A stretch of 64,000 nt of DNA from an uncultured Gammaproteobacteria bacterium (GTDB taxonomy: Bacteria; Patescibacteriota; Microgenomatia; UBA1406; HO2-37-13b): NCBI GenBank assembly GCA_964612595.1, contig CAZTFB010000001.1:195058-259057 (forward strand), given 5' to 3'. How positions within the stretch are numbered: the stretch's first letter is position 1; each line of letters begins with the position of its first letter. Positions 14,930 to 64,000 of the stretch are shown one piece after another. Made by a program: the position numbers and the translations under genes. Below the pieces are notes generated by a model. That model made no database searches, had not been told where the DNA came from, and saw only the letters and a list, made by a program, of their open reading frames with translations.

Positions 14930-14972
14930 AGGTGCCGAACCTCCCCGTCGATATGAACTCTCAGGGGAGACA

Positions 14973-15005
<33 letters not shown>

Positions 15006-15260
15006 AAGCCCCGCCGGCAATCATAGCCGATCGGGGGATCACTAACGCCTTCTTTCGAATCTGATCGGGATGTATCCCTCACAGTTAAGCTGGCTTTTGC
15101 GTTTACACATACATTCCGATTTCCATCCGGAATAAGCCAACCTTTGCGCTCCTCCGTTACTTTTTAGGAGGAAACCGCCCCAGTTAAACTGACCACCTAC
15201 TACTGTCCCCCGTAAAACGAGGTCAGACTCAAAGCTTTTAAAGAGAGGTGTTTCATTGGT

Positions 15261-15325
15261 GTCAGCTCCAATCTATACTATAGGTATTCTATTATGTTTA
15301 TCCTATAGTATAAATTGGAGCTGAC
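15261..15325 (-). repeat. 23S hairpin insert a
   Basis: 24-bp stem with 1 mismatch (GTCAGCTCCAATCTATACTATAGG / CCTATAGTATAAATTGGAGCTGAC) and a 17-nt loop. Confidence 0.8.
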
Positions 15326-15477
15326 TCCCTCCTACGCTAAACAGTTAAAAGCCTCTTATCAATAATAAGTTTCAGTAAAGCTCCCGGGGTCTTCTTGTCC
15401 AGGTGCAGGAAGGCCGCATCTTCACAGCCATTTCAATTTCGCCGAGCAGTAGTTCAAGACAGTTTTCAACTTGTTAA

Positions 15478-15511
<34 letters not shown>

Positions 15512-15711
15512 GGCTACGCTACCTTAGAACGGTCAGAGTTACCGCTGTCGTTCACCGGAGCTTGAATCAGAGCCTTGTCCGAAATAAATCGGACTCAACC
15601 CCAATTCTTGACTTACCGGCACTGGACAGGCCTCACCCCCTATACTTCCCGTTTCCGGTTTGCAGGGAGCTGTGTTTTTGCTAAACAGTCAGTTGAAAGT
15701 CATTTGCTGCG

Positions 15712-15776
15712 CCCAGCCCCAATTTGATACCCGATCTATGATTTTACTCTCGATCCGATCTCAAATTGGGGCTGGG
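15712..15776 (-). repeat. 23S hairpin insert b
   Basis: Perfect 16-bp stem CCCAGCCCCAATTTGA / TCAAATTGGGGCTGGG. Confidence 0.8.
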
Positions 15777-15974
15777 AGGACATATCCCTAAGTTACGTCC
15801 AGCTAATTTGCCGAGTTCCTTGAACCACCCTTACTCGATTGCCTTAGTCTTCTCGACCAATCCACCTGTGTCGGTTTGCGGTACGGACAAATATAAAACT
15901 CCCAGAACGGCTTTTCCCGGAAACATAACGAAGCAATCTCCCTCGACTTGCGTCAAAGTTGTATTCACAGCTCT

Positions 15975-16032
15975 CCAGCTCTATTTGAGCTCTATAGATT
16001 GTACAAAACCCATAAAACACAAATAGAGCTGG
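15975..16032 (-). repeat. 23S hairpin insert c
   Basis: Perfect 13-bp stem CCAGCTCTATTTG / CAAATAGAGCTGG. Confidence 0.8.
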
Positions 16033-16411
16033 ATTGCTGCTTAAACCCCCATATAGAAGGCACTGCATATCATATTTCGTCACCACAATGGTAATAACGC
16101 TTTATACTTGGTAGCCGAATATTAACGGCTTGTACATCGAGATCCGCCTTTCGGCAGGACCCTTAGATCCGACTAACCCTCAGCCGATGTACGTTGCTGA
16201 GGAAACCTTGGATTTTCGGCATCCTGAATTTTCATCAGGAGTATACGCTACTCATGCCAGCATTCTCACTTCTGTACGCTCCACCACACCTTACAGTTAT
16301 AGCTTCAGTGCATACAGAAAGCTCCCCTACCGCGACCTCAATATAAATATTGAAACCACCTCCAGCTTCGGTATATTGTTTGAGCCTCGATCATTTTCGG
16401 CGCAAGGTCTC

Positions 16412-16478
16412 ATACCAGCTCCATTTAATACTATAGTTGTCGCTATATAAGACCTATAGTACTAAATGGAGCTGGTAT
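16412..16478 (-). repeat. 23S hairpin insert d (helix-45 region)
   Basis: 25-bp stem with 1 mismatch (ATACCAGCTCCATTTAATACTATAG / CTATAGTACTAAATGGAGCTGGTAT) and a 17-nt loop. It has no counterpart in the E. coli sequence as I recall it. Confidence 0.8.
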
Positions 16479-17038
16479 ATTACGGTGAGCTGTTACGCTT
16501 TCTTTAAAAGGTGGCTGCTTCTAAGCCAACTTCCCGTCTGTCTTTGAAACCTCACAACCTTTACCACTTAACAATAATTTGGAGACCTTAGCTGGGAGTC
16601 TGGGCTGTTTCCCTTTCGACCATACTCGCTTATCCGAGCAAGTCTGACTCCTTTCGATTTTAACAGTGAGTATTCGGAGTTTGGTTAATCCTAGTTACCA
16701 AAGGCTCCTAGGACTATCCAGTGCTCTACCCCTCACCTTACTCGAAAAGGCTATACCTAAATATATCTCGGGGAGAACCAGCTATCTCTAAGTTCGATAG
16801 GCATATTACCACTAACCACAAGTCATCCCAAGTCATTTCACCGACAACGAGTGCGGGCCTCCCCCTGTCTTTCGACAAGGTTCACCCTGCTCATGGTTAG
16901 CTCACTTAGTTTCGGGTCTTTTAACAGCTACTGAACGCCCTATTCAGACTCGCTTTCGCTATGGCTTCCCAACTTAATTGGTTAACCTTGCAGCTGCTAA
17001 AAACTCGCTGGCTCATTCTTCAATAGGCACGACATCAT

Positions 17039-17101
17039 CCCGCTCTATTTAGCACTCTATATTCGATTGTAGAGTTGGTCTAAAATGCTAAATAGAGCGG
17101 G
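17039..17101 (-). repeat. 23S hairpin insert e (helix-25 region)
   Basis: Perfect 16-bp stem CCCGCTCTATTTAGCA / TGCTAAATAGAGCGGG, with an inner CTCTA..TAGAG stem. Confidence 0.8.
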
Positions 17102-17160
17102 ACCCTGTCTGCTTGTTAGCTAACGGTTTCAGGTACTATTTCACTCCCCTCACCGGGGGA

Positions 17161-17201
<41 letters not shown>

Positions 17202-17666
17202 ATGTAAGTATTTAGCCTTGGAGCATGACCGCCCCAGTTTCCCACAAGGTTTGCCGTGCCTCGTGGTACTTGGGAATCAGACTAGGGCACAAGTTATTTT
17301 CGACTACAGGGCTATCACCTTCTATGGCCGTCCTTTCCAGAACGTTTATCTAACAACTTATGATCCCATATCGTCTGTCCCGCAACACCCAATTCTTAAT
17401 TTGGGTTTAGGCTCCTCCGCTTTCGCTCGCCGCTACTCACAGAATCTCTATTGATTTCTTTTCCTCCGGTTACTTAGATGTTTCAGTTCACCGGGTTCCC
17501 TACCAATTGATAAATCAACTGGCTCAGTCATATTACTATGACCGGGGTTGTCCCATTCGGAAACCACCGATTGATAGCGCCTGTCTGAGGGCTCATCGAT
17601 GATATCGTGCTCATACACACGTCCTTCTTCGGCTTACATTGCCAAGGCATCCGCCGTTAGCTTTAA

Positions 17667-17682
17667 TATAATATTCCGCAAA
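17667..17682 (-). other. 5'-flank arm of the 23S processing stem
   Basis: TATAATATTCCGCAAA is complementary to 13722-13737. Confidence 0.7.
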
Positions 17683-50539: not shown

Positions 50540-51322
50540 TTACAATTCAAATTCCACAATGAGTGGAATATGGTCTGAGACGTTTTCTTCTGAAGAATAT
50601 GCATTAAGGATCTTAATATCTTTACTCGCGAACACAAAATCGACGACTGATGTGCCGAAACTTCCACCTTTATCTGCCTTATGCAGCATGTTAAAACTTG
50701 TTTGAAGTTTACCTTTGAACACATTAGTTAATTTTTCCTCAATACGAGCGATAGCTTTTGTATGTTGATCAATGTTCAAGTCACCTGAAAATAAAAGTGG
50801 GCTTTTCTCCTCAACTGCCTCCAGAATTGCATCCGCCATTATATCTCTCGATTCGCTATCCTTATCATCAAATCCCCATACTCCGTGCGTTGTGCCAATA
50901 AACAATGGTTTCACTGGTGTTGCTATCTCCGCTACCAATGTTCCTTTATGCATCACACTCCAATCATCCATACCCTCCCACTCAAAAATCTTATAGTCGT
51001 GGATATAAGAGTCGTATGCATGCTTTGTAATGGGGAATCTCGATAGAATTGCTATACCGAATTCGACTGGGTGAATATTGTCATAGTGGGTTTTGTCCTT
51101 AAAAGCAGCTTCTGGAACAAATACTGAGTGTAATAAACCTGTTTCTTGCTTTACTTTTTGTAGAAAGTCCAGTGCTGGGTGTGGAGTGTATGGTGATACT
51201 GCATTTGGCATACATACCTCCTGCATTGCAATAAAATCTGGTCTTTGATTAACTAAGAATGGTAAAAGTTGTTCATGAAGTAAGCCACCAAACCAGATAT
51301 TAGTTTGAATGTATTTGTACAT
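50540..51322 (-). CDS. endonuclease/exonuclease/phosphatase (EEP) family protein
   Basis: DFIAMQEV near the N-terminus and SDHIPLIVEF at the C-terminus. Confidence 0.8.
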   Translation of the reverse strand: MYKYIQTNIWFGGLLHEQLLPFLVNQRPDFIAMQEVCMPNAVSPYTPHPALDFLQKVKQETGLLHSVFVPEAAFKDKTHYDNIHPVEFGIAILSRFPITKHAYDSYIHDYKIFEWEGMDDWSVMHKGTLVAEIATPVKPLFIGTTHGVWGFDDKDSESRDIMADAILEAVEEKSPLLFSGDLNIDQHTKAIARIEEKLTNVFKGKLQTSFNMLHKADKGGSFGTSVVDFVFASKDIKILNAYSSEENVSDHIPLIVEFEL

Positions 51323-51324
51323 AG

Positions 51325-52461
51325 TTAACGAGAGCGACGTCGAAGAAATGCTGGGACATCAAACTCATTATCATCATCGGTCTGTTTTACTTCGTCAACA
51401 TCTTCCTCATATAATGAAGGTAATGGTTTATTCTCTTCTTTCTTTGGCTGATCTTCATCCTCATCCCTATCAGAAATTCTGCGGCTTATATGTGGAAATC
51501 GCATATCATTCCCATCAATTCTTGTCGCAATAACAGTGACACGAACTTGATCAACCATATGATCGTTAATAACTGCCCCGAATATAATATCTGCGTCTGG
51601 ATCGACCGTCTGTGCAATTACACTTGCTGCTTCGTCTACCTCTGACATACTTAAATCTGGACCTCCCACGATATTAAAGAGGACACCTTTAGCTCCCTGG
51701 ATAGACGACTCAAGAAGTGGAGATGATATTGCCTGTTTAACGGCGTTTATTGTTCTATTTTCACCACCCGCCATACCAATACCCATAAGCGCTGTGCCAG
51801 CATCTTGCATTATTGAACGTACATCGGCGAAATCAACATTGATAAGTCCAGGAGTCGTAATAAGCTCTGCGATACCCTTTACTCCCTGATGAAGTATGGA
51901 GTTAACTTTTTTAAATGCCTCCAGCACACTTACTTTTGAGTCAATAATTTCAAGAACCTTTTGATTTGGAATCACAATAAGGGTATCCACTTTGTCTCTA
52001 AGACTATCAATACCCTGCGTTGCAGAGACTTTCCTTCTAGCACCTTCAAAACCAAAGGGCCTTGTCACGACAGCAACAGTCAAAGCACCAACTTCTTTAC
52101 TAATTTCAGCAATGACAGGAGCAGCTCCTGTACCTGTACCGCCTCCCTCTCCTGCAGCAATAAAAACCATATCTGCTCCCTCTAGGTGTTCTTTGATTTT
52201 TTCTCGTGATTCTTCTGCAGCTTGTCTTCCAATTTCAGGATCACCTCCAGAACCAAGTCCTTTAGTAAGATTCTCACCAATCTGGATTTTAATATCTGCG
52301 TTATGACTTAGGAGAGCTTGAGAATCTGTATTGAGTGCAATAAACTCTACGCCAATGATATCATCTTCGGCAATCATTGTAGAGAGGGCGTTACCTCCGC
52401 CTCCCCCAACGCCGAGAACTTTAATTTTAGCTGGTTGACCAGCTCGTGGTTTTACTAACAT
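51325..52461 (-). CDS. ftsZ: cell division GTPase FtsZ
   Basis: GVGGGGGNA and the tubulin signature GGGTGTGAAPVIA. Confidence 0.97.
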   Translation of the reverse strand: MLVKPRAGQPAKIKVLGVGGGGGNALSTMIAEDDIIGVEFIALNTDSQALLSHNADIKIQIGENLTKGLGSGGDPEIGRQAAEESREKIKEHLEGADMVFIAAGEGGGTGTGAAPVIAEISKEVGALTVAVVTRPFGFEGARRKVSATQGIDSLRDKVDTLIVIPNQKVLEIIDSKVSVLEAFKKVNSILHQGVKGIAELITTPGLINVDFADVRSIMQDAGTALMGIGMAGGENRTINAVKQAISSPLLESSIQGAKGVLFNIVGGPDLSMSEVDEAASVIAQTVDPDADIIFGAVINDHMVDQVRVTVIATRIDGNDMRFPHISRRISDRDEDEDQPKKEENKPLPSLYEEDVDEVKQTDDDNEFDVPAFLRRRSR

Positions 52462-52476
52462 AGTTCAGATTATCTA

Positions 52477-53745
52477 TCAAGGAATAAACGATTTGAAAAG
52501 ATCACGGACCTTCTTGACCGACCCTTGAACAGATAAGTTCCTGAATATTTTATCAAAATCTTTAAGATTAAGCTGTTGTTCTTCAAAATCCATATCTTTT
52601 CCGTATATCAAGAGCCCAACGACTGCAGCAAACTGTGGATATGTGACCTCGTCTATAAGTCCAGTTATATTCTTTGGATTGGCAGTACGGGCTGGCAAGC
52701 CAACAACACGCTTAGCGGCATCTAATGATCCAACGGTAAGTGCGCCGCCGCCTGCAACAACAAGACCTGAAGGTATGCGAGATATAATCTCATTTTCCTC
52801 AAGTTCTTTGTATATATTCTCAAAAATCTCTTCCATTCGTGGTTTAATTATGCCTTCGACGACGGTCTTGTATGAAATTGATTTTATGTCGTCATTTAAC
52901 TGTAGGCGAGATACATCAATATCATCGCTCTTCTTGTCTTTATCGGGAATGCTTTTCAAACTACTCAGATGGAGCTTTATTTTCTCGGCTGAATCAAGAG
53001 AGATTCGAAGTCCAACGGCAATATCATTGGTTATATGGCGCGCGCCAAATGATAGCGAAGTAGAATGAGAGAGCGCGCCCTCGATATAAACAGCAATATC
53101 AATTTTACCTCCTCCAATATCAACTAGCGCCACACCGAGTTCCTTTTCTGTATCTGAGAGTGCTGACATCGATGAAGCAAGACCAGAGAACACATAACCT
53201 TGAATTTCAATACCAAGATCCGACATACACCGTTCAATATTGCGCAAATTAGTTACACTTGCGGTTACAATATGTGTATTAACTTCGAGCCTGACCCCAC
53301 TCATGCCAAGAGGGTTCTTGATGCCTGCTTGGCCGTCGACAATATATTCTCGAGGAGCAACCTCAATAATCTCGCGCGTTGAAGAAAGTGATATTGCTTT
53401 CGCCGCTTCAATAACTCTTGTTAGATCACTATCTGAGATCTCAACTTCTGGATGCGAAACAGCTACAACACCTTGTGAGTTAAGAGATTGAATATGTGGC
53501 CCTCCTACAGATACATAGGCTTTCTGGACTTTAGAGCCGGCCATACGCTCACACTGCTCAACAGCTTGCTCGATAACAGCAGTAACTTGTTGGATATCAA
53601 CAATCTGTCCTTTTTTAACTCCTTTAGAAGGCACACTTGAAAAACCAAGTACTCGAGGTTGTGGTTCGTCTTCGGAGATTTTAGCAATAATACAGGCTAT
53701 TTTTGAGCTACCTACATCGATACCGCATAAAATTTTATCTGCCAT
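52477..53745 (-). CDS. ftsA: cell division protein FtsA
   Basis: Actin-fold motifs GIDVGSSKI and VDIGGG. Start set to M8. Confidence 0.9.
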   Translation of the reverse strand: MADKILCGIDVGSSKIACIIAKISEDEPQPRVLGFSSVPSKGVKKGQIVDIQQVTAVIEQAVEQCERMAGSKVQKAYVSVGGPHIQSLNSQGVVAVSHPEVEISDSDLTRVIEAAKAISLSSTREIIEVAPREYIVDGQAGIKNPLGMSGVRLEVNTHIVTASVTNLRNIERCMSDLGIEIQGYVFSGLASSMSALSDTEKELGVALVDIGGGKIDIAVYIEGALSHSTSLSFGARHITNDIAVGLRISLDSAEKIKLHLSSLKSIPDKDKKSDDIDVSRLQLNDDIKSISYKTVVEGIIKPRMEEIFENIYKELEENEIISRIPSGLVVAGGGALTVGSLDAAKRVVGLPARTANPKNITGLIDEVTYPQFAAVVGLLIYGKDMDFEEQQLNLKDFDKIFRNLSVQGSVKKVRDLFKSFIP

Positions 53746-53746
53746 A

Positions 53747-54433
53747 TTATTTCTCAAACACAACAATTGGTTTCTCGAACCTAAGATCTAAACGCGAGAA
53801 TGAAAGCGCCTTCGCTCTAAACTGCTCAATAACAACCTTAAGCTGCGCTATCTGCACACGCGCATCCTTTGTTGCCGAAACCAATATCTCACGTTCCTCT
53901 GAAATTAATACTATCATATTCTCATTTCGTATATCAACTGTGCTGATAGGAATATTGAGCTTCTGGACTTCCTCAATTATAAAGACAGCTGTTACAACCT
54001 CACCTATATCAATAATCTCACCCACAGTAAAGTTTCGATAATATAATGGTTGATAGTACTGAACAGGTATATGTAAGTTTTCTTCAAGATCTTTTTGCTT
54101 TGCAATAATCTTGCCTTTTGAAGATAGTTGCATAATGCCATCTTTTAATAAAAGACTCGCTATTGGCGCGGATGGAATAACCGATATCACGATCGATTGA
54201 GGGAAGACTAGCTGCACTGATACTTTTTGAAGTGAAGGATTATTATCAAGAATTTCGCGCTCAATATCCTCCTTTTTTAAAAAGAACATACTTTTATTGC
54301 TGTAAACTTCAGTACCAAACAACTGTTTCGTTCCTTCAACAGTAATTTCTTTAACTCTAAAATAGTATGAGAGACTTATGGGTAAGGCTAAAAGAATAGT
54401 GCCGACTAAGAGGTAAAGAATTATTTTACGCAT
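53747..54433 (-). CDS. ftsQ: FtsQ/DivIB-like protein
   Basis: N-terminal TM segment plus a POTRA-like region, positioned between murG and ftsA. Confidence 0.65.
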   Translation of the reverse strand: MRKIILYLLVGTILLALPISLSYYFRVKEITVEGTKQLFGTEVYSNKSMFFLKKEDIEREILDNNPSLQKVSVQLVFPQSIVISVIPSAPIASLLLKDGIMQLSSKGKIIAKQKDLEENLHIPVQYYQPLYYRNFTVGEIIDIGEVVTAVFIIEEVQKLNIPISTVDIRNENMIVLISEEREILVSATKDARVQIAQLKVVIEQFRAKALSFSRLDLRFEKPIVVFEK

Positions 54434-55527
54434 TCCCCCATTATATCAGCGATCGATTCAGCAGCCGGAAGCATAAATGAGTCGGGAAGTTTTCTGAATG
54501 CGGATATGTGATTATCTCGATGTAAATACACACTTCTAATTTTTCTCAATAGATTATCACTAGGCTCAATTTGATCAAATTCTTCACCAAGGCCGTGTTC
54601 TACAAAAAATCGAGCTTGAAGTCTTTGTTCATTTCTACCCGACCAGGGTAGCGGAACTAAAACTGCAGGCTTTTTAAGCATAACAAGTTCCCAAGTTGTA
54701 TTTGCACCTGAACGTGCTACAACAAGCGCGCTCTTTTTATATGCCCATGCCATTTGATGTGCGTTTAAATTTTTTATTACTACATATTCATTTGAGGCAT
54801 ACTTGCTTAGTCGAGTATAATCATCAAACTCCGATACATTTCCTACTTGATGTACTATGGTGAACTCATCTAATAGCTTTTCAAGAATCTTTTCAATGTG
54901 TACGTTTATAGAATGCGATCCCATACTCCCCCCTGTAATAAAAAGCAGTGGCTTTTCTCCTGAATAAGTCATAAATTGTTCTCCAGGCTTATGAAGAACA
55001 GTTCTTATGGGGTTTCCCGTATGGAATGTTTTGTGCGCTCCGAAATATTGTGTCGTTTCAATGAATGAAACTAAAACTTTATCAGCTATAGTACCAATAA
55101 TTTTATTCGATATTCCTGGCGCAATGGTCTGTTCATGAGTAACGATGGTAATACCAAGGAACCACCCCACAATCGCAACAGGGAGCGCAATATATCCTCC
55201 AAAGGAAAGAATGACCTGCGGCTTAAGTTTGTTAATCAATATCAAGCTCGCAATAAATCCATATACTGTAGCACCGATGTCATATAGAGTATGTATGCCG
55301 AAGTTACGTGAAAGTCTACCTGTGGTGAGGTGATAAAAGGGAATATTAAGAGACGTGATCTCATTATATTCAAAGGAAATATCTTTTTTTGCGCGGTCTG
55401 AATATTTTCGACCAACGAAAGAAATTTTACTGTATCCCCTTTTTTTAAGCTCTTCGATCACCGCATATGCAGGAGTGACATGGCCTCCGGTAATCAATAT
55501 TCGTGTTTTGATATTTACTGCGTTCAT
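54421..55527 (-). CDS. murG: UDP-GlcNAc:lipid I GlcNAc transferase MurG
   Basis: GT-B fold with ILITGGHVTPA N-terminus and ITGGSMGS, in dcw context. Confidence 0.85.
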   Translation of the reverse strand: MNAVNIKTRILITGGHVTPAYAVIEELKKRGYSKISFVGRKYSDRAKKDISFEYNEITSLNIPFYHLTTGRLSRNFGIHTLYDIGATVYGFIASLILINKLKPQVILSFGGYIALPVAIVGWFLGITIVTHEQTIAPGISNKIIGTIADKVLVSFIETTQYFGAHKTFHTGNPIRTVLHKPGEQFMTYSGEKPLLFITGGSMGSHSINVHIEKILEKLLDEFTIVHQVGNVSEFDDYTRLSKYASNEYVVIKNLNAHQMAWAYKKSALVVARSGANTTWELVMLKKPAVLVPLPWSGRNEQRLQARFFVEHGLGEEFDQIEPSDNLLRKIRSVYLHRDNHISAFRKLPDSFMLPAAESIADIMGECVK

Positions 55528-56663
55528 TTTCGTTTAGCTATACTAATTGTAATCCCCATTAGTGAAAACAATATCAACAAACTTGATCCTCCATATGAGA
55601 TGAAGGGCAATGGAACGCCTGTTAAAGGAATTAAGCTTACCATTGCACCAAGATTTATGATCATTTGCCACGCAAGCAAACACCAAATTGATCCTGCCAG
55701 TAATTTTCCAAACCTATCTTTTGCATGAATAGTAACCTTAAACATTAAGTAAAGGAGTGTCATATACAATAAAATCAGAAGGAAGGATCCTACAAAACCA
55801 ATTTCCTCACCGATTATGGCAAAAATGGAATCCGTGTGCGCTTCGGGAAGGTACTGGTATTTTTGACGTGAGCTTGATAAACCTCTGCCAAGCAAGCCGC
55901 CTGAAGCGAGTGAAATAGAGATTTGTCTAATATGGTACCCTATTCCTCCCGGATCAAGTTCAGGATTAAGATATGCAGTTAGGCGTTTGAGTCTATACGG
56001 CGAGGTAAGTACAAGCATAAGGCCAGCAACAAATGCAAAGGGACTAAACATCGCAAGGTGTAAAAGATTTTCACCTGAAAAAAAGTAAATTGATACAAAA
56101 ATAAGAAACACTATCACTGAAGTGCCGAGGTCAGGTTGAATCATGATAAGCCCAATTACAAAACTTAGTAGGAGCAAAAAAGATACAAATCTTTGACGAT
56201 CTTTATGTAAAAACCAGGAAGAAAGATATAGTATGAGTGCAAATTTCGCTAATTCCGATGGTTGAAACCCTATAGGACCGAGGTTTATCCATCGTCTTGC
56301 TCCTCCCACAGTAACACCAACACCAGGTATGAGCACAACTATGAGGAAAAAAATTGCGACAAGTAGCAATGGAAATGCTATGTAATACAGCTTACGATAA
56401 TCCAAAAAACTAAATATGCCCATAACACCTATGCCCAAAACAAACCACATGAGTTGTTGTTTAAAAAAATAAAAACTATCACCAAATCCTCTAAAAGCAT
56501 TTACTGAAGAAGCATCAAATATGAAAAATAAACCTATTGTTGTTAATACAATGGGAATAGTAGCGAGCAGACTAATATCTACTTTATTTTTTACTTGTGC
56601 AGATTCTTTATGTATTCGAGATGTTCTTTTTCGCATACTCACTAATTTCTTGGATGAACGCAT
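55524..56663 (-). CDS. ftsW: SEDS-family protein FtsW
   Basis: PEAHTDSIFA and PFISYGGSS motifs, in dcw context. The start is uncertain because it overlaps the murD 3' end. Confidence 0.85.
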   Translation of the reverse strand: MRSSKKLVSMRKRTSRIHKESAQVKNKVDISLLATIPIVLTTIGLFFIFDASSVNAFRGFGDSFYFFKQQLMWFVLGIGVMGIFSFLDYRKLYYIAFPLLLVAIFFLIVVLIPGVGVTVGGARRWINLGPIGFQPSELAKFALILYLSSWFLHKDRQRFVSFLLLLSFVIGLIMIQPDLGTSVIVFLIFVSIYFFSGENLLHLAMFSPFAFVAGLMLVLTSPYRLKRLTAYLNPELDPGGIGYHIRQISISLASGGLLGRGLSSSRQKYQYLPEAHTDSIFAIIGEEIGFVGSFLLILLYMTLLYLMFKVTIHAKDRFGKLLAGSIWCLLAWQMIINLGAMVSLIPLTGVPLPFISYGGSSLLILFSLMGITISIAKRK

Positions 56664-57843
56664 CTCCTCGTGCAGGAAAATGTTTGTACATTAGATAACT
56701 TGGCGCACCAGGAGACATAAGACATGTTGCGCCAGAAGGAGTATGTACGAATGCAAGTGAAACGGCTTCTTTCATAGAATCTGTGTAAAATATCTTTGGA
56801 TTGTATTCTTCTACTGTTTCCAGAGCATGTGTAATTTTATCTTGAGTATCTGGAAACAGTATGATAGTTTCAACACCAGATTCTTTAAGGCAACGAGCAA
56901 CTTCATCAAAATTAAATCCCCTATCCTGACCTCCGAGTAATACGGTGCGGATATTTTCAGTATTTTTTAATGCATGCACCGAAGCCATAGGATGGTTTGC
57001 ACCGGAGTCATTTATAAATTTAATACCTGAATATGTACCAACCTCTTGCATCCGATGAGGGAGTGCAATGTAACCATCAAGAGTTTCTTGTATGGTCTTT
57101 TTTTCGAGTTCTAATATTTCTGTGAGTGTCACAAGGGCTTTCACTGTATCACCATTTAATGACCGATCGTAGTTAAACTCACCAATACTATCCATAAATG
57201 GAATTTTTTTTGCTTTTGTAGAGGTTAATAATTCATTGAGTTCTGGCAAATTTCGATTGTAAAGGAGAAAATCGTTTTCATCAGCGTGCTGTGCGATCAT
57301 AAATTTTGCTTTTCTATATTCATCAAATGTTTCATGATTATGTAGCTCCTCATATATGTTCAAAATAATTGAAATATGAGGTGAATATGCAATGTCTTCA
57401 AGTTGATAGCTTGAAAGTTCCAAAACAATGTACGTATCATTATCTACATTATTTGTCAGTATATCTAGCATTGCTGAACCTATGTTTCCAGCAAGCGCTG
57501 TCTTCTTACCTGCCCGTTGTAAGAGCTGATGAGTGAGGGTTGCCGTCGTACTCTTCCCTTTAGTTCCCGTAATACCTATCGTTTTGTGGTTCGAGTTTGC
57601 GAAAAAAATGTTTGTTGCGGTCGTATAATTACCTCGCACCTTGTCAAACCGAATGCCCGGTGACTTTATTACTAAATCATACTCAAGCTGTTTTTCAAGG
57701 TAATCCGAATCGATACTTATATCTCCAATACCAACTTCAACATTGGGGCAATATTTATTTAAAAAAGCATGGGTGGATTTTCCTTCAATACCGTATCCAA
57801 GAAGGTATATTTTTTTAAAACTGGAAAGTTCATTTATAGTCAT
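56608..57843 (-). CDS. murD: UDP-MurNAc-L-Ala:Glu ligase MurD
   Basis: Mur ligase P-loop GITGTKGKSTT and an N-terminal Rossmann-like domain, in dcw context. Confidence 0.85.
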   Translation of the reverse strand: MTINELSSFKKIYLLGYGIEGKSTHAFLNKYCPNVEVGIGDISIDSDYLEKQLEYDLVIKSPGIRFDKVRGNYTTATNIFFANSNHKTIGITGTKGKSTTATLTHQLLQRAGKKTALAGNIGSAMLDILTNNVDNDTYIVLELSSYQLEDIAYSPHISIILNIYEELHNHETFDEYRKAKFMIAQHADENDFLLYNRNLPELNELLTSTKAKKIPFMDSIGEFNYDRSLNGDTVKALVTLTEILELEKKTIQETLDGYIALPHRMQEVGTYSGIKFINDSGANHPMASVHALKNTENIRTVLLGGQDRGFNFDEVARCLKESGVETIILFPDTQDKITHALETVEEYNPKIFYTDSMKEAVSLAFVHTPSGATCLMSPGAPSYLMYKHFPARGDAFIQEISEYAKKNISNT

Positions 57844-59222
57844 ATGATAGCTTTGAACTTTTTAGGAATACTGCTTTTATCTCCATCTGTAAATACTTTT
57901 GCCTTCATATCATCGAAATTTTTATTCATTGAAAGAATGTTATCCTTGAATAACTGCATTGCTATACTCCCTTCATACTCGCCTTTATCATAAGCTAGTT
58001 TCATAGCAACCATCATCTCCTCAGGCGTACCCACACATTCGAAAGGCTTTATGCTCTCTAGACCCAGTAATTGTTTAAAGTGCGGAATAAGACTAGCCAT
58101 ATCATATAGGTTATCACCGAAGATCCTGAGCATCTCGTCTTTAGACAGAAATGCAGTTAGCATTGTATATACAAAAACTGTTTTGGGCGAATCATACTCC
58201 CATCTGTGAATTTCTCCTAAAGCATCAAGCTTAAAATTATGATTACTGCTCGAGAAGACATCGAAATAATTTGATAGTTTTGAAAATTTTTCCGTCACCT
58301 TTATCTCATACCATGGTCTGAGCATTGAAAAGTATGTGAGATCTGGTGTTATATAGGTTGTTATATAGTTAGCTAACAGTTTTTCAGCCTCACTAGATTT
58401 GCTCCACTGATGATTTATTACTTCTCCAAGATACGTCACATTTCCATAATCGCTGCTACGCTCACTTGAAATCACGATATAGCGATACTTACCAATAATC
58501 GCCTGTAGCACAGCTGCAAACGTATAGACAGTTGATATTGGAACATGTCCATTATAAACACCGCCCGACACGTTTAAGTCAAGGAGCTTTGGATCAAGTT
58601 TGCGTGATATTGTTAGTATATTTTTATTCATGCGATGAGCAACATCCTTTTGAATATCTTTTGGATTTAAGCAAAAAAGGTCAAAATCAACACCAGCCTC
58701 TCTCACAATTTCTGTCGAAACAATAGAGTCTTTCCCTCCACCATGTAAGACTAAAGCTCTTTCGTCAAAATTCATCCTTGAGGGTTCCGCTAATTCGATA
58801 TTTTCTGCGAACGGAAACTGCAATAGGTCTTGATAGTCGATGTTGTTTTTATAAAAAAACTCACCCAATCCTTTTGTGTAAATTGTGTTCCACATCTCAG
58901 CCTGTCCATAACTCAACGAATAATTATTTATTTGTATCATTGGCGGACAATAGGCTTTATAGTAACTAGCTCCTAATATGAGATGAAGAGCTTGCAGCGA
59001 TGCGTTAAGCACAGAAGGGGGGATATGGGATGTATCAAAAATTGAACCGAGCTGCCAACGCTCCATAAATGGAATACGTTTTGAGCCTTGGACAACTTCA
59101 TAATAAAATTGTAATATACCTGTTTCCCAGTTAGCTTCATATTGAGTGAAAACAAAAATATCTGCCTTTGATGTGTTATGCATATCTATATTATACGGAT
59201 AGAGCTTATTTAAGGAAAGCAA
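57840..59222 (-). CDS. PP-loop ATP pyrophosphatase-fold protein (MurL-like candidate)
   Basis: 460 aa. ALVLHGGGKDSIVS resembles the SGGxDS PP-loop. Translationally coupled to murD (ATGA overlap) and overlaps the mraY 3' end. Confidence 0.45.
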   Translation of the reverse strand: MLSLNKLYPYNIDMHNTSKADIFVFTQYEANWETGILQFYYEVVQGSKRIPFMERWQLGSIFDTSHIPPSVLNASLQALHLILGASYYKAYCPPMIQINNYSLSYGQAEMWNTIYTKGLGEFFYKNNIDYQDLLQFPFAENIELAEPSRMNFDERALVLHGGGKDSIVSTEIVREAGVDFDLFCLNPKDIQKDVAHRMNKNILTISRKLDPKLLDLNVSGGVYNGHVPISTVYTFAAVLQAIIGKYRYIVISSERSSDYGNVTYLGEVINHQWSKSSEAEKLLANYITTYITPDLTYFSMLRPWYEIKVTEKFSKLSNYFDVFSSSNHNFKLDALGEIHRWEYDSPKTVFVYTMLTAFLSKDEMLRIFGDNLYDMASLIPHFKQLLGLESIKPFECVGTPEEMMVAMKLAYDKGEYEGSIAMQLFKDNILSMNKNFDDMKAKVFTDGDKSSIPKKFKAII

Positions 59223-60252
59223 TCATCAATCCAAGCATAGCAAAGAGAATTGCAGCAAGCCAAGCACGCATTACAATTTTTGGCTCCTCCCACCCTTTGT
59301 ATTGCAGCATAAGATGCAGAGGTGCCGCTGGAAATACTTTTTTTCCTCTGTATTTCTTTGAGATTAATTGAATGAAAGAAGTTCCAATTTCGACAACAAA
59401 AATCCCTCCAATAATAGGCAATGCAAATACCTTACCCAACAGGAGCCCGATAACAGCGAATGTAGCTCCAAATGCAAGTGCTCCCGTATCTCCCATAATG
59501 AGTCGAGCGGGATAAACGTTAAAATACAAAAATGCTACAAGACCCCCAATCCACACCGCTATGAAAATAAGCAAAGGTGTATCGAGAATTGAGAGAGAGA
59601 TTGCCCAGAATGCAAAAAGTGCAATCAACAGAACGCCGCCGGCTAACCCGTCAAGACCATCTGTTATGTTGACTGCATTTGAAAACGCAACAATGGTAAA
59701 TGTTGCAAATGGTATGTACCACCACGAGAGATTATAAACACCAAAGTAAGGGATATTTATGATATTAATTTTAAGCTCGGCAAAAATCCAATAGGCAATA
59801 ATTGTAGCTAGAATAATTTCGATGAGTAATTTGTGTTTAAGCCTTAGGCCGAAAAAGGAAGAATTCTCCCATACAAATATTTTTTTTAGGTCGTCATACA
59901 GGCCCAAAAATGAAAATGAGAGAAAAGTAAATAGTAAAATCTTGATTTCAGATACTATAGATTGATAGTTTGAGACAATGTCACTCCCACCCACGACCAT
60001 TAGTAATGTAAACAAGGTAAAACATAAAAGGGTCGTTATGATAATGAGTATTCCTCCACCCACAGGTGTTCCAGCTTTATGTTTGTGAAAAGAATCAAAT
60101 ATAGGGGTTTTCTTATCAAATGCATCTCTCGTTTCTTGCACAGCCCTCTGAAATTTGAGCTTATACAAAAGATTAATGAAAGGAACAAAAAGTAAGCTAT
60201 TTATGAAGAAAGATATGAAAAAACCAAATAAATAGATTGCCATATTAACCAA
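59206..60252 (-). CDS. mraY: phospho-MurNAc-pentapeptide translocase MraY
   Basis: NAVNITDGLDGLA motif and about 10 TM segments. Confidence 0.95.
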   Translation of the reverse strand: MVNMAIYLFGFFISFFINSLLFVPFINLLYKLKFQRAVQETRDAFDKKTPIFDSFHKHKAGTPVGGGILIIITTLLCFTLFTLLMVVGGSDIVSNYQSIVSEIKILLFTFLSFSFLGLYDDLKKIFVWENSSFFGLRLKHKLLIEIILATIIAYWIFAELKINIINIPYFGVYNLSWWYIPFATFTIVAFSNAVNITDGLDGLAGGVLLIALFAFWAISLSILDTPLLIFIAVWIGGLVAFLYFNVYPARLIMGDTGALAFGATFAVIGLLLGKVFALPIIGGIFVVEIGTSFIQLISKKYRGKKVFPAAPLHLMLQYKGWEEPKIVMRAWLAAILFAMLGLMIAFLK

Positions 60253-60616
60253 CTAGGACAATAATTTTCGGAATAAAAATCATGGATGCGATAATAAGCG
60301 CTCCGACAGCGAACGTTAACATTGCAGCAGCTGATACATCTTTTGCAATTTTTATCTCCTCACGCCACTCTTTAGTTATTGCATCAGTGGTAGCTTCAAG
60401 ACCCGTATTTAATGTTTCTATAACAAGTCCCATCGTTATTAGAAAAATAACCATCAACCATTCTTGCATTGAGATTTTTAGCGTCAAACTCAGAAATATC
60501 GCTATTGTTGAAAAAGCAATGTGTATTCTGTAGTTGGGTTGCGTACGCATGGCCCACAAAACCCCATCGTATGCATGTTTAAATGAAATAGTATGTTTGT
60601 GCAATTGTGTGCCCAT
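60245..60616 (-). CDS. dgkA: diacylglycerol/undecaprenol kinase (DgkA family)
   Basis: ETLNTGLEATTDAI and AKDVSAAAML motifs. Start set to M25. Confidence 0.8.
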   Translation of the reverse strand: MGTQLHKHTISFKHAYDGVLWAMRTQPNYRIHIAFSTIAIFLSLTLKISMQEWLMVIFLITMGLVIETLNTGLEATTDAITKEWREEIKIAKDVSAAAMLTFAVGALIIASMIFIPKIIVLVG

Positions 60617-60620
60617 AATC

Positions 60621-61598
60621 TCATTGTATAACGGATGATAAGACTTTTGCGAGCTTTTCTGGATCGTGTCGTTGAAGACTACGTACAACTACATCTGCCA
60701 TTGATGTTGTAAATGCCTGCTCTGCAACTAAATCAGCTCGTAATATCTCCAAAGGATGTGCTGAAAAAGTATCTAAATCATCCTTAACTTCGCCCTCTCC
60801 ATACCCTTGATAGTATTCTTCAACATCTTTTGATATTTTTTTGTTGTTCATGACAACCATGTCAACCTGTCGCCCCATATAGCTCTCAAGATCCCTCACA
60901 TGATCAACAGCAGTATAGTTCGGTGTCTGTCCTCTCTTAGTCATTAGATTAATGTTGAGCACAATCTTGGCTTTTGTCATAACAAATGCTTCTTTAATTC
61001 CCCCGACAAGAAGATTCGGTACGATGCTTGTATAGAGATCACCTGGACCCATGATGATGTAATCAGCTGAAACAATTGCTTCAATTGCATTTGGATTTGA
61101 AGATGCATCAGGTTTTAAAAAGGCTTTTTTTATACGGGATTCCTTATGAAAAGCTGAATCAATTAAATCTTCTGTCATGAGCGTTTCTCCATCCTCATAT
61201 TCAGCGCAAAGATGTACTCTATCAAAAGTTACAGGAATAACCTTTCCCTTTGTTTGGAGAATGTATGATGCAGTATCAATCACCTCCTGGTAGTTAGGGG
61301 CTGTTACTTGTTCTAATGCAGTCAAAAAAATATTTCCGAAATTATGTCCCTTAAAATCTCCCTTCTCAAATCTATAGAGAAAAAGCTTTCTCCATAGTTC
61401 TGATGCTTCTGACAGCGCAACAAGACACTGTCTTACATCACCTGGAGGAAGTACGCCGTATTGGTCTCGAAGTTTCCCAGTACTACCACCACTATCCATA
61501 CTCGTTACTACCGCAGAAAGATTATAGTCGTAGTTTTTTAGACCTGAAAGAACAACATAAGTACCCGTTCCACCTCCTATAATCGTAATATTCTTCAT
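60621..61598 (-). CDS. YvcK/CofD-like (UPF0052) protein
   Basis: ITIIGGGTGTYVVLSGLK N-terminus and the GPGDLYTSIVPNLL motif. Confidence 0.85.
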   Translation of the reverse strand: MKNITIIGGGTGTYVVLSGLKNYDYNLSAVVTSMDSGGSTGKLRDQYGVLPPGDVRQCLVALSEASELWRKLFLYRFEKGDFKGHNFGNIFLTALEQVTAPNYQEVIDTASYILQTKGKVIPVTFDRVHLCAEYEDGETLMTEDLIDSAFHKESRIKKAFLKPDASSNPNAIEAIVSADYIIMGPGDLYTSIVPNLLVGGIKEAFVMTKAKIVLNINLMTKRGQTPNYTAVDHVRDLESYMGRQVDMVVMNNKKISKDVEEYYQGYGEGEVKDDLDTFSAHPLEILRADLVAEQAFTTSMADVVVRSLQRHDPEKLAKVLSSVIQ

Positions 61599-61636
61599 AG
61601 ATGTTATATTTTACACTATCACAGCAATTAATTTAC

Positions 61637-62794
61637 TCACGACACAAAGTATCCCTGTGCAAAAAATGCAAGGAGAATACACTGAAAAAGGACAAATATT
61701 CCTAATACTACATAGAATGTCGTAAGTTTTACTTTACTCAGGACAAAAAATATTGATAGTGCAAAAAGTGAATAACGAGGTGTCGACGATAGCGTTCCTG
61801 TGAGTGTTGGAAGAATTAAATTTGCTAATGAAAATAGTGCTATACCAAATTCTTTCATTGCTTTTTTTTTAATAGACCAGTAGGTGTGAATACCTGTAAG
61901 AATCAAAGCAACAGTAAAAAGCACAAACTCAACAACAGCAATAGCATATTGAAAATTAAAGCTGGCAGTCATAAAAATACGAACATATCTGAAAAATACC
62001 TGTGGTAATAAAATTACCTCGGATGATCTATGCGCACCAAACGAAGACTGTACGGTTAAGAAATACATTGGATTTCCTGTTGCAAAGAAGAGGTACATCA
62101 TATACATAAAAATGCCTAAAAAAGGCGAAAATATGATTGGATGTGTTGTAAATATATTCCATAAATTTTTCTTAAAACTAATTCTCTGATCATAAAGACT
62201 AAAAAAGAGTGGAAGAACAAGAAAAACACCCTGAATTCTTGTTAGTGATGCACATACAAGCACAAAGAATAGGAGTCGATACGTTTTCTTGTACATAAGA
62301 TATAGACTTGCTACGATCAGAAAAAAGAAAAGTGACTCTGTGTATACTGCAGAGAAAAAGAATGATGTTGGATAGGCCAGTAAAAGCATGAGAAATCTAA
62401 ACCTATGTTCAAGATGAAACACTTCTTTCAGAACCTTATGACATATCAATACGCCACCTATGAAAAAGAGTTGACTCAGTATAAAACCAGTAATGAAAAT
62501 GTTGTTGATTGTAACGCTACTTACAAAACGAACAAGGAATGGGTAAAGTGGAAAGAATGCTCTGTCTATATCGTGATATCCCTCTCGAGCAATACCTAAA
62601 TAGTGAACACCATCAAAATTTGCCCAGACACCAAGTAAATGTGGCCATTCCTTTGCCTCAGGAATAACTTCAAAAGTAAATCGAGGCAGAAATAATATGC
62701 TCGTTGCAGCAGCTGCAATAACTAAACTAAGCACAAAAAATCTCACAACGAGGAGCATTAGTAGTTTCGCATTACTTACTTGTCTCGTGTGCAT
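61637..62794 (-). CDS. polytopic glycosyltransferase, PIG-V/mannosyltransferase-like
   Basis: About 10 TM segments. The WANFDGVHYLGIAREGY..AFFPLYPF motif is typical of PIG-V-like GT-C enzymes. Confidence 0.6.
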   Translation of the reverse strand: MHTRQVSNAKLLMLLVVRFFVLSLVIAAAATSILFLPRFTFEVIPEAKEWPHLLGVWANFDGVHYLGIAREGYHDIDRAFFPLYPFLVRFVSSVTINNIFITGFILSQLFFIGGVLICHKVLKEVFHLEHRFRFLMLLLAYPTSFFFSAVYTESLFFFLIVASLYLMYKKTYRLLFFVLVCASLTRIQGVFLVLPLFFSLYDQRISFKKNLWNIFTTHPIIFSPFLGIFMYMMYLFFATGNPMYFLTVQSSFGAHRSSEVILLPQVFFRYVRIFMTASFNFQYAIAVVEFVLFTVALILTGIHTYWSIKKKAMKEFGIALFSLANLILPTLTGTLSSTPRYSLFALSIFFVLSKVKLTTFYVVLGIFVLFQCILLAFFAQGYFVS

Positions 62795-63984
62795 ACATCT
62801 CCAGGCTGGACTAAGGATCCACTGTTAAGCATGACTCCTGGCATTGTCGTTGAGTTTACTCCCATCTGGAATGACCTACCTGCGATTACACCTAATTTCT
62901 GTCTCTTAGTATCAATTTTTTCATCTTTAACCCTGCATTGGATATTTTTTTTATCAAAACGGTAGTTAGCAGTAACCGATCCAGCCGCAAAATTCGCATC
63001 GCCCTCAACGATAGAATCACCTATATAAGCTCTATGTGTCCACACATTGTCACCAATGTACGATCGAGTTAATTCTGTATAACCGCCAATAACAGATTTC
63101 TCTCCAATCATGCTTTGATTTATAAGTACATAATTCCCAATAATAGTGTTCTTACCTATATAGCAGGGTCCGACGATTTTTGAATATTCGTAAATTTTTA
63201 CACCGTCATCTATGTAAACATCGCCAATAATTTTTGCTGTTGGATCAATAACAACATCCTTACCAATATGTCCAGCTGTTTCCTTTAAGAAAAAGGACAT
63301 TGCGTCTAATATATGCCAAGGATACTTTAGAGTTGCCCAATCGCTTTTATAAACCGCGTTTTTAAATACTTTACCAGAAGAAATATATTCTGTTAATGCG
63401 ACCTCGTATACGTCGTCATTATCCGATGTTGTAGTCGAGAGTAATTCGAGAAAATCCTGAGCATTCTTTACATAATCAACAACAAGTTTAAAATAGCGAG
63501 ACTGTAGATCGTCTGGACTGGGTTTTTCAATAATTCCTGTTATCTTTCCCTCGTCAAGCTGTAAATATCCTCCGGGAACATAGTCTTTTATCAGTAATGA
63601 CACAAACAATCCATCCACGTCGCCTTCATCTCTTTTCTTAAATAGTTCTTCTAGCATATGGTCGTGATATAAATCATTTGCGTTAGCAAACAGCGCACTT
63701 CCCTTAATATATGGCTTTGCAGATATGAGTGCTGCTGCCATCCCCTCACCAGATTGGACAACAAGTTGAGCTTTATGTTTTTTTGTGAAAGGCTCAACGG
63801 TCTTTTTTGTTTCTTCATTTACGACTACTATGAGATTCTTTGTATAACGACCATAAAATTTCAACTGATACTCAATGAGAGTCTGTCCATTAAAAAGAAA
63901 GAGGTTTTTGTGAGAAAGTGGCTTAAATCGTGTACTGCTACCTCCAGATAAAATTACTATAGTATCAATCATATGATCCATCAT
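62776..63984 (-). CDS. sugar-phosphate nucleotidyltransferase with C-terminal left-handed beta-helix (GlmU-like architecture)
   Basis: IVILSGGSSTRFKPL N-terminus and hexapeptide-repeat-rich C-terminal half. Confidence 0.7.
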   Translation of the reverse strand: MMDHMIDTIVILSGGSSTRFKPLSHKNLFLFNGQTLIEYQLKFYGRYTKNLIVVVNEETKKTVEPFTKKHKAQLVVQSGEGMAAALISAKPYIKGSALFANANDLYHDHMLEELFKKRDEGDVDGLFVSLLIKDYVPGGYLQLDEGKITGIIEKPSPDDLQSRYFKLVVDYVKNAQDFLELLSTTTSDNDDVYEVALTEYISSGKVFKNAVYKSDWATLKYPWHILDAMSFFLKETAGHIGKDVVIDPTAKIIGDVYIDDGVKIYEYSKIVGPCYIGKNTIIGNYVLINQSMIGEKSVIGGYTELTRSYIGDNVWTHRAYIGDSIVEGDANFAAGSVTANYRFDKKNIQCRVKDEKIDTKRQKLGVIAGRSFQMGVNSTTMPGVMLNSGSLVQPGDVCTRDK

Positions 63985-64000
63985 ACACGTTTAATGTCTG

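Follow-up and report, generated by a model that had tools for sequence, protein, structure and literature searches.

A murL-like gene paired with murD in a patescibacterial division and cell-wall cluster

The gene located between mraY and murD on the minus strand of the 64-kb window (the whole stretch of DNA analysed here) very probably encodes MurL, an ATP-using epimerase that converts L- to D-glutamate on the cell-wall precursor and is paired with an L-Glu-adding MurD. The murL-murD pair is widespread in Patescibacteria, where it is frequently found as one fused protein. The enzyme family is already known, and the window gene is annotated by homology to a family for which Pfam and NCBIfam models exist, so the surprise is moderate. 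[quoted passage not shown] The published lists of MurL distribution (PMC8788868, PMC5808125) do not include Patescibacteria, the group of the window's host. A search of the literature found nothing linking MurL or MurD2 to Patescibacteria/CPR, nor MurL to QueC or the PP-loop.

The gene and its surroundings

The features of the locus, all on the minus strand, are as follows.

51325..56663, minus: ftsW, murG, ftsQ-like, ftsA and ftsZ, the downstream division and cell-wall genes (ORFs; Pfam families on identical public contigs)
56608..57843, minus: murD-type ligase, 411 aa (Pfam Mur_ligase_M/C; TIGR01087, 234 bits)
57840..57843, minus: ATGA overlap of the murL stop (TGA 57842-57840) and the murD start (ATG 57843-57841)
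57840..59183, minus: murL-like CDS, probable true extent, 447 aa plus stop (public gene calls, NF041275, homologue alignment)
57843..58778, minus: predicted C-terminal QueC-like PP-loop ATP pyrophosphatase domain MurL_epimerase_C, about residues 136-447 (PF26298, Foldseek; boundary approximate)
58017..58049, minus: conserved motif KPFECVGTPEE (residues 379-389), with invariant Cys383 at nt 58035-58037
58179..58247, minus: region of the lost Cys4 motif (QueC/QatC-type zinc), S313, E329, S332 and T335 replacing the four Cys
58398..58415, minus: conserved motif NHQWSK (residues 257-262), a candidate part of the active site
58725..58742, minus: PP-loop motif GGGKDS, residues 148-153 (sequence, family conservation, TtuA alignment)
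58779..59183, minus: N-terminal domain MurL_N, about residues 1-135 (PF26299; three-stranded sheet then helices; boundary approximate)
59184..59222, minus: stretch upstream of the probable start, reaching the TTG at which the longest ORF begins, 13 extra residues, probably untranslated
59206..60252, minus: mraY, the upstream neighbour (PF00953, E 2.1e-31)

The ORF claimed by an earlier, sequence-only reading is real: when the longest ORF is taken, it spans 57840-59222 on the minus strand and encodes 460 aa from a TTG start. Its position between mraY and murD and the ATGA overlap with murD were also read correctly. However, the start codon is likely the ATG at 59183, giving a product of 447 aa with no overlap with mraY. 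Exactly this product is called in four public assemblies, and the homologue alignment begins at the Met of this ATG (window MHNTSKADIFVF vs P0002 MNTTSKAELFVF), the 13-residue extension being missing from public gene calls and homologues alike. This start would leave 22 nt between the mraY stop (59206-59208) and the gene. The length of 460 aa and the 17-nt overlap with the end of mraY, both part of the earlier reading, thus hold only for the longest ORF and arise because that ORF was taken. As it matches a curated family with an E-value of 5.5e-97, with at least 5584 homologues scored, the murL ORF is, on grounds of homology, no chance feature.

The ftsQ-like ORF downstream matches POTRA_1 with an E-value of 1.3e-4 and 22.6 bits, slightly below the Pfam cutoff of 23 bits. 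A promoter and terminator scan of positions 51000-64000 gave counts equal to those of shuffled controls. Within the 64-kb window no homologue of MurI or of class-IV aminotransferases (D-amino-acid transaminase) was found.

Family identity, fold and conserved residues

The NCBIfam model for MurL (NF041275) matches residues 19-457 of the 460-aa ORF over profile positions 6-440 of 447, with a score of 325 bits. This lies below the equivalog cutoff of 700 bits, in a model built for Xanthomonadales on which the positive control, X. sacchari MurL, scores 836 bits. By tblastn the window protein is 39% identical to the annotated X. sacchari murL product (the murL and murD sequences of X. sacchari were drawn from the plasmid collection, where they lie on a record of 508 kb). 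The Pfam families MurL_N (PF26299) and MurL_epimerase_C (PF26298) are precomputed on an identical public protein; a local Pfam scan of the window protein, using a Pfam copy that contains neither PF26298 nor PF26299, gave no match. A MurL-type enzyme had been suspected from the sequence, and profile searches against MurL and PP-loop families bear this out, since MurL is matched over its full length and QueC and tRNA-thiolase families (Pfam, NCBIfam) are absent. The same function is nevertheless unproven by the score alone, because a stand-alone Pseudonocardia plasmid homologue that has no murD neighbour reaches 322 bits on NF041275. Members of the murL family also occur in unrelated contexts.

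The window protein contains ALVLHGGGKDSIVS, including GGGKDS, and retains the family-invariant motifs GGGKDS, GHxP, NHQWSK and KPxxCVG...E. Among 202 family members, X. sacchari MurL included, GGGKDS is at least 98.5% conserved. In the NHQWSK motif H258, Q259 and K262 are 100% conserved across these members and N257 and S261 at least 97%, and a catalytic role for the motif may be supposed. K379, P380, C383, G385 and E389 of the KPFECVGTPEE motif are likewise 100% conserved, Xanthomonas and Pseudonocardia homologues included, which would be compatible with an acid/base role of Cys383. In total, 48 positions are at least 97% conserved among the 202 members; the window protein keeps all 48, whereas X. 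sacchari MurL lacks three of them (W98, Y273 and G374).

The AlphaFold (AF2) model of the window protein has a pLDDT of 92.3, and the secondary structure of its N-terminal domain comprises strands over residues 9-45 and helices over 56-112. The best matches among solved structures (Foldseek) are QatC, QueC, Cap9, TtuA, MnmA and ThiI, with probabilities of 0.75-1.0 for the first five. In a profile alignment GGGKDS lies opposite the SGGKDS of TtuA (E 0.001); a single-sequence search of the window protein against PDB chains gave no match. The PP-loop signature noticed in the sequence-only reading is present, and the fold search, which returns PP-loop proteins, confirms a PP-loop fold. The window protein shares with QueC, QatC and Cap9 a Rossmann-like PP-loop core, in which the PP-loop sits at residues 148-153 (156-161 in QatC), and the C...CxxCxxC of most MurL proteins sits at the structural-zinc position of QatC and QueC. 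The six matched proteins all belong to the PP-loop ATP pyrophosphatases, enzymes that AMPylate an oxygen of the substrate (PMC13376578), and AMPylation of a carboxylate would be expected as the first step of the chemistry here too. The fold agrees with the published formation of AMP by MurL (PMC8788868, PMC5808125).

The resemblance has clear bounds. [quoted passage not shown] Could the window protein then be an unrelated PP-loop enzyme (QueC, a tRNA thiolase or a QatC-type defence protein) that lies in the cluster by chance? Its nearest solved folds are indeed QatC and QueC. However, membership of the QueC, QatC and Cap9 sequence families is absent (Pfam, NCBIfam, PADLOC), matches to QueC, TtuA and ThiI are missing from Pfam and NCBIfam, and PADLOC returns none, so that identity as QueC, a tRNA thiolase or defence QatC was rejected. 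The MurL match over the full length and the universal linkage with murD also argue against such a chance arrangement, which we regard as hardly conceivable.

The window protein is without the Cys4 motif of X. sacchari MurL and most family members, which counts against its identity as MurL. All four Cys are present (CCCC) in 172 of the 203 sequences analysed (85%), X. sacchari MurL included, and all four are absent in the other 31, the window protein among them; these form one pure clade in a neighbour-joining tree. The corresponding zinc motif of QatC and QueC has been described (PMC13376578). Published accounts of MurL do not list Cys4 as a defining feature.

The murL-murD pair and its ligase

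A pattern scan of the genome collection gave at least 600 stretches, of which at least 593 encode a relative, and 80 loci were kept, all apparently from Patescibacteria. Among the stretches listed, only CPR-type loci were returned, with no Xanthomonas. Clustered at 50% identity, the MurL family as a whole falls into about 2,400 groups. Complete patescibacterial chromosomes with murL include CP066689.1, OZ246396.1 and OY970357.1. murD lies directly downstream of murL in 77 of the 80 related loci, the remaining three being contig ends, and in 28 loci the two are a single-ORF MurL-MurD fusion. One of the fusions, L032 (834 aa), was scanned, and each of its halves matches, with 330 and 280 bits. 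The same 4-nt overlap as in the window is found in 19 of the 80, by a first-start-codon heuristic. An order of mraY-murL-murD-ftsW was considered as a general arrangement and rejected, as mraY is the immediate upstream neighbour in only 12 of 69 loci and ftsW the immediate downstream one in only 19 of 60. A racemase near murL-murD in one locus (L018) was likewise rejected as murI: it is of the asp_race type (TIGR00035, 159 bits) and scores 45 on glut_race, against a cutoff of 147. The window pair resembles that of X. sacchari in that the protein is collinear with the Xanthomonadales MurL profile and murL directly precedes and overlaps a murD-type gene in both. However, the X. sacchari pair adjoins an aspartate kinase/diaminopimelate decarboxylase gene, whereas that of the window lies inside a division and cell-wall cluster.

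The neighbouring ligase is proposed, from its residues, to be of the MurD2 type and to add L-Glu. Mapped on MurD of E. coli and MurD2 of X. sacchari, its informative residues are E166, G281, R308, P381, Y383 and L384; of the E. coli residues, D182 is replaced by Glu, K319 by Gly, K348 by Arg, A414 by Pro and L416 by Tyr. The four positions that distinguish MurD2 (E197, R358, P433 and F435; 197 and 358 in X. oryzae numbering) thus hold Glu, Arg and Pro plus an aromatic residue, and the Lys at E. coli K319 is missing, as in MurD2. The double change E197D/R358K turned MurD2 to D-Glu specificity, and K319T makes E. coli MurD accept L-Glu (PMC8788868). In the four canonical solved MurDs that were aligned, position 414 is Ala and position 319 is Lys, and the window MurD is unlike all four at 319, 414 and 417, being MurD2-like in its lack of Lys319 and Asp417 and its Pro414. 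Arg at K348 is not diagnostic by itself, because it is shared by S. agalactiae MurD, a canonical D-Glu ligase.

Other comparisons of the ligase point in different directions. In a comparison of scores, a profile of CPR MurDs gives X. sacchari MurD2 257 bits and E. coli MurD 214, whereas phmmer with the window MurD alone gives 150 bits for S. agalactiae MurD and 115 for X. sacchari MurD2. The window MurD is 29% identical to X. sacchari MurD2. Against the assignment, it carries Glu at the position where Mur ligases normally have His183. TIGR01087 cannot tell MurD2 from MurD, because X. sacchari MurD2 itself scores 298 bits on it.

Proposed pathway and its alternatives

The one-way epimerisation from L to D needs ATP and Mg2+ and releases AMP, and this chemistry has been published for the Xanthomonas, Micromonospora and Salinispora enzymes only (PMC8788868, PMC5808125). 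If, by analogy, it applies to the window protein, the MurD2-type ligase would add L-glutamate, rather than D-glutamate, onto UDP-MurNAc-L-Ala. MurL would bind ATP at the GGGKDS PP-loop of its QueC-like Rossmann domain and adenylate the alpha-carboxylate of the terminal L-Glu, making the alpha-proton acidic. The candidates Cys383, His258, Lys262 and His213 could then take the proton off and give it back from the opposite face. The reaction would run one way, and MurE would act next, so that normal synthesis of the cell-wall precursor goes on. The organism would have no other source of D-Glu. MurI serves the same metabolic need, supplying the D-Glu that forms the second residue of the stem peptide, but it acts on free glutamate, without ATP and reversibly (PMC8788868); its fold is unrelated to that of MurL and a homologue is absent within the window.

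It is also conceivable that the window protein is a MurL homologue that carries out the same adenylation with another outcome, in which ammonia or another nucleophile attacks the adenylated alpha-carboxylate of Glu to give iso-glutamine or an adduct, not epimerisation. MurT/GatD gives iso-glutamine in Gram-positives. The identity of only 39% to Xanthomonas MurL, the score under the equivalog cutoff and the family members in unrelated contexts leave room for such a divergence, and in PP-loop enzymes AMPylation is as a rule followed by the attack of another nucleophile (PMC13376578). However, the window protein keeps all the near-invariant residues, nearly all of them common to X. sacchari MurL, and since the partner ligase has L-Glu-type residues, the cell would need an epimerase to obtain D-Glu. 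The close murL-murD linkage and the fusions fit a two-step pathway, and we consider this other outcome unlikely.

Alternatively, the window MurD may be an ordinary D-Glu ligase, with murI elsewhere in the genome and MurL proofreading or salvaging precursors with mis-incorporated L-Glu. The search for murI covered the 64-kb window only, and a functional MurI has reportedly been found in some CPR bacteria (Penalver et al. 2024). The shared Arg at K348 of S. agalactiae MurD and the pass of the window MurD on TIGR01087 (murD) also favour an ordinary ligase, although that model does not separate MurD2 from MurD. Against this stand the departures from the four canonical MurDs at 319, 414 and 417, where the window MurD sides with MurD2. 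Salvage would not account for the obligatory joining of MurL and MurD in the 28 fused loci among the 80, and we hold this scheme to be very improbable.

For the epimerase pathway, the broader proposal is that Patescibacteria (CPR) obtain the D-glutamate of their cell wall mainly through MurL and MurD2, often joined in a single bifunctional protein, and that MurL, as a QueC-like PP-loop enzyme, works by adenylation and can do without its zinc site; on balance we lean slightly towards it. The QueC-like PP-loop fold fits the proposed adenylation mechanism. If the proposal is true, it explains how organisms reported to be without racemases build peptidoglycan, and the Cys-less clade that includes the window protein would show that the zinc site of MurL can be dispensed with. 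Natural fusions and zinc-less variants of MurL are now on hand for mechanistic work. Together, the locus and its relatives offer a testable answer to the origin of D-glutamate in many ultra-small bacteria.

The murL-like gene and its surroundings

The gene and its neighbours in the window, listed from 5' to 3' of murL, are:

60245-63984, strand as mraY: genes for a DAGK_prokar protein (prokaryotic diacylglycerol/undecaprenol kinase type), a CofD/YvcK-type protein, a PIG-V-like membrane glycosyltransferase and a GlmU-like nucleotidyltransferase with hexapeptide repeats
mraY (PF00953), stop codon 59206-59208: 5' neighbour of murL
57840-59222, minus strand: longest murL open reading frame, 460 aa from a TTG start
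59183: internal ATG of that frame, giving 447 aa
57840-57843: ATGA shared by the murL stop and the murD ATG
murD-type Mur ligase gene (Pfam Mur_ligase_M and Mur_ligase_C; TIGR01087, 234 bits): next gene after murL
ftsW, murG, ftsQ-like, ftsA and ftsZ: 3' of murD

This arrangement bears out the placement between mraY and murD, and the ATGA coupling, that had been described from the sequence-only reading. The same reading had the 460-aa frame overlapping mraY. The frame is there, but the gene most likely starts at ATG 59183, 22 nt from the mraY stop and so without an overlap, since homologues align from this methionine and the exact 447-aa product is called in four public assemblies. No ORF of at least 80 aa lies on the opposite strand beneath murL, and a scan found promoter and terminator sites in the cluster no more often than in shuffled sequence. 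The four genes 5' of mraY are tightly packed, and the envelope-synthesis block therefore reaches well past the classical cluster.

Elsewhere in the window, a 23S rRNA match (13726-17676, minus strand) spans 3951 nt against a 2925-nt model, so that about 1 kb is inserted in the gene. The match contains an ORF (14248-14826) for a homing endonuclease of the LAGLIDADG type (PF03161, E 6.5e-39), which suggests that the rRNA gene has an intron.

Family membership, fold and the Cys4 site

The NCBIfam MurL model NF041275, built on Xanthomonadales, aligns through its positions 6-440 of 447 with residues 19-457 of the 460-aa ORF (E-value 5.5e-97). The score of 325 bits is short of the 700-bit equivalog cutoff; the annotated Xanthomonas sacchari MurL, used as a positive control, reaches 836 bits. 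Precomputed PF26299 (MurL_N) and PF26298 (MurL_epimerase_C) assignments are found on the identical public protein and on 120/120 homologues among the matches listed, and X. sacchari murL is 39% identical to the window protein over 72% of the query (tblastn). An alignment of 203 sequences combined the window protein, X. sacchari MurL, a Pseudonocardia homologue, the listed database matches and the genome loci. With Pseudonocardia left out (202 sequences), conservation reaches 97% or more at 48 positions, and the window protein keeps all 48, among them GGGKDS 148-153, G212-H213-x-P215, E241, N257-H258-Q259-x-S261-K262, K379-P380-x-x-C383-V384-G385 and E389. Judged by these comparisons, the protein belongs to the MurL family at the Pfam level. 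The family itself is already known: it has Pfam and NCBIfam models, and some homologues from CPR bacteria (Patescibacteria) are named MurL epimerase by JGI.

How far does membership predict function? A Pseudonocardia plasmid paralogue without a murD neighbour scores 322 bits on NF041275, level with the window protein, and it keeps the Cys4 motif discussed below. Because of this equal score and the missed cutoff, the functional call leans as much on context as on the profile match: the murD coupling, the fusions and the ligase residues described below. Together these lines of evidence support the MurL-type epimerase proposed from the sequence-only reading, and a MurL-like function is the most likely prediction. 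Stand-alone genes of the family, with no murD beside them, occur on two Pseudonocardia plasmids (L087, 5992-7386, source of the 322-bit copy; L090, 4959-6359). Each faces a WD40-repeat gene (about 1300 aa) in convergent orientation and lies near a sigma-factor gene. These surroundings suggest a member acting on another substrate.

The AlphaFold2 model (32-sequence alignment; mean pLDDT 92.3, pTM 0.92) has as its best Foldseek matches in the PDB only PP-loop ATP pyrophosphatases: QatC (9y01_B, 9y02_B; E about 1.5e-4, probability 1.0), QueC (3bl5, 2pg3; target TM 0.62-0.63), Cap9, TtuA, MnmA, ThiI and argininosuccinate synthase. The MurL family profile also matches TtuA (PH0300; E 0.001), with GGGKDS opposite SGGKDS. 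The motif ALVLHGGGKDSIVS in the 460-aa ORF, earlier taken for a PP-loop signature, thus stands in a predicted PP-loop fold, and as modelled the protein is a QueC-like PP-loop enzyme at the fold level. Membership of the QueC or QatC family was rejected, with no QueC match in Pfam or NCBIfam and none in PADLOC.

MurL has been stated to be without known conserved domains (PMC8788868; PMC5808125), and a literature search found nothing tying it to QueC or PP-loop enzymes. Enzymes of the PP-loop superfamily AMPylate a carboxyl or keto oxygen of their first substrate with release of pyrophosphate (PMC13376578), and adenylation of the alpha-carboxylate has been hypothesised for MurL (PMC8788868; PMC5808125). 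Cys383, His258, Lys262 and His213 are candidates for the residues that would move the proton.

In QatC, the PP-loop spans 156-161, and Cys332, 352, 355 and 358, conserved in QueC too, bind structural zinc (PMC13376578). The MurL PP-loop lies at 148-153, and most members have a comparable C...CxxCxxC (window positions 313, 329, 332 and 335). In the window protein, S313, E329, S332 and T335 stand in for all four cysteines of this zinc-type motif. The motif is complete in 172/203 sequences, X. sacchari MurL and the Pseudonocardia homologue among them, and wholly lacking in 31/203; none of the 203 has an intermediate number. In a neighbour-joining tree the 31 form one pure clade that holds the window protein and its closest relatives. 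Given the single clade and the lack of intermediates, the structural metal site seems to have been lost once, with the catalytic motifs retained.

The linked ligase and the murL-murD pair

According to published mutagenesis, L-Glu specificity in Xanthomonas oryzae MurD2 is set by Glu197 and Arg358, which correspond to Asp182 and Lys348 of E. coli MurD. The two enzymes also differ at Pro433 and Phe435, the counterparts of Ala414 and Leu416 in E. coli, and E. coli MurD accepts L-Glu after K319T (PMC8788868). These positions and E. coli Asp417 were compared in an alignment of E. coli MurD (numbered from the K-12 gene), X. sacchari MurD2, the window MurD and 72 MurL-linked CPR MurDs.

Residues of MurD proteins at the compared positions (E. 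coli; window; X. sacchari MurD2; CPR MurDs)
D182; E166; Glu; Glu 59/72, Asp 13/72
K319; G281; Ile; Ile 65/72, Lys 0/72
K348; R308; Arg; Arg 72/72
A414; P381; Pro; Pro 67/72
L416; Y383; Phe; Tyr or Phe 70/72
D417; L384; Gly; Asp 0/72

By contrast, Lys319, Ala414 and Asp417 are shared, in pairwise alignments, by the canonical solved MurDs of S. agalactiae, T. maritima, A. baumannii and E. coli; Arg at 348 is also present in S. agalactiae MurD. The murD HMM is blind to the distinction, giving X. sacchari MurD2 298 bits. By phmmer the window MurD scores higher against S. agalactiae MurD (150 bits) than against X. sacchari MurD2 (115 bits), and a CPR MurD profile gives 257 bits for X. sacchari MurD2 and 214 bits for E. 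coli MurD. On overall similarity, a grouping of the window MurD with Xanthomonas MurD2 is not clear-cut. The window MurD also reads YEELHNH (57337-57351, residues about 165-169) in place of the usual FPEH(M/L)DYH, more loosely (F/x)P(E/D)H(M/L)D(Y)H, so that the Mur-ligase His183 (E. coli) is Glu. Among the 72 CPR MurDs this Glu recurs only in the closest relative (L006), and one sequence (L027) is gapped there.

A pattern scan with one genome per species matched at least 600 stretches, of which at least 593 were confirmed to encode relatives, and the best 80 loci were examined. A murD homologue directly follows murL on the same strand in 77/80; the remaining three are contigs ending there. 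Both proteins share one ORF of about 800-900 aa in 28 of these 80, and a 4-nt overlap like that in the window is found in 19 further loci by a heuristic that starts each gene at the earliest start codon of its open frame. In one fusion (L032, 834 aa), residues 5-412 match the MurL HMM (330 bits) and 474-832 the murD HMM (280 bits). Fusion-sized proteins (795-893 aa) also make up 24 of the best 150 family cluster representatives. We know of no description of a bifunctional MurL-MurD protein.

Loci with fused MurL-MurD (match near 6001 in full-length loci)
L031, L032, L035, L036, L039, L040, L045, L046, L051-L053, L059, L063-L066, L069, L071-L074, L076, L078-L081, L083

By comparison, mraY lies directly 5' of murL in only 12/69 loci and ftsW directly 3' of murD in 19/60. 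Because the murD linkage is near-constant while these neighbours vary, the conserved unit is murL-murD, and the mraY and ftsW placement is not general. X. sacchari has the same murL-murD arrangement, but there the pair sits outside the division cluster. Its record (L086, NZ_CP010410.1, 508 kb) is labelled 'plasmid unnamed'. Besides murL and murD, it holds ssb and an aspartate kinase/diaminopimelate decarboxylase gene; as this content looks essential and chromosomal, the replicon may be a chromid or a fragment of the chromosome.

All of the best 80 loci are apparently from Patescibacteria, most under Microgenomates, Parcubacteria, Peregrinibacteria/Peribacteria or Saccharibacteria titles. About 20 have other titles resembling placeholder names. 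Many contigs with the Patescibacteria-typical pair (L006, L007, L013, L018 and others) are titled 'uncultured Gammaproteobacteria bacterium', and still others Weeksellaceae, Bacillota or Omnitrophota; the taxonomy in these titles seems to be a placeholder or wrongly assigned.

Sources of D-Glu

E. coli MurI and IlvE, the latter a probe for class-IV aminotransferases, had no match among window ORFs of at least 60 aa (64-kb window; best E-value 0.46, with a search space of 274 sequences). In one CPR locus (L018), an Asp/Glu-racemase-family gene (4958-5704) lies about 1.5 kb 3' of murL-murD. It was rejected as a glutamate racemase (45 bits, cutoff 147; 159 bits on asp_race TIGR00035) and may supply another wall D-amino acid.

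Reviews by its discoverers list MurL only from some Gamma- and Alphaproteobacteria and rare actinobacteria (PMC8788868), and add orthologues of low similarity from cyanobacteria, a fungus and an amoeba (PMC5808125). A literature search found no paper joining MurL or MurD2 to Patescibacteria. Penalver et al. reportedly found in 2024 that most CPR genomes encode no more than a single racemase for Glu or Ala; if so, the murL-murD pair, being widespread, would make good the missing D-Glu supply.
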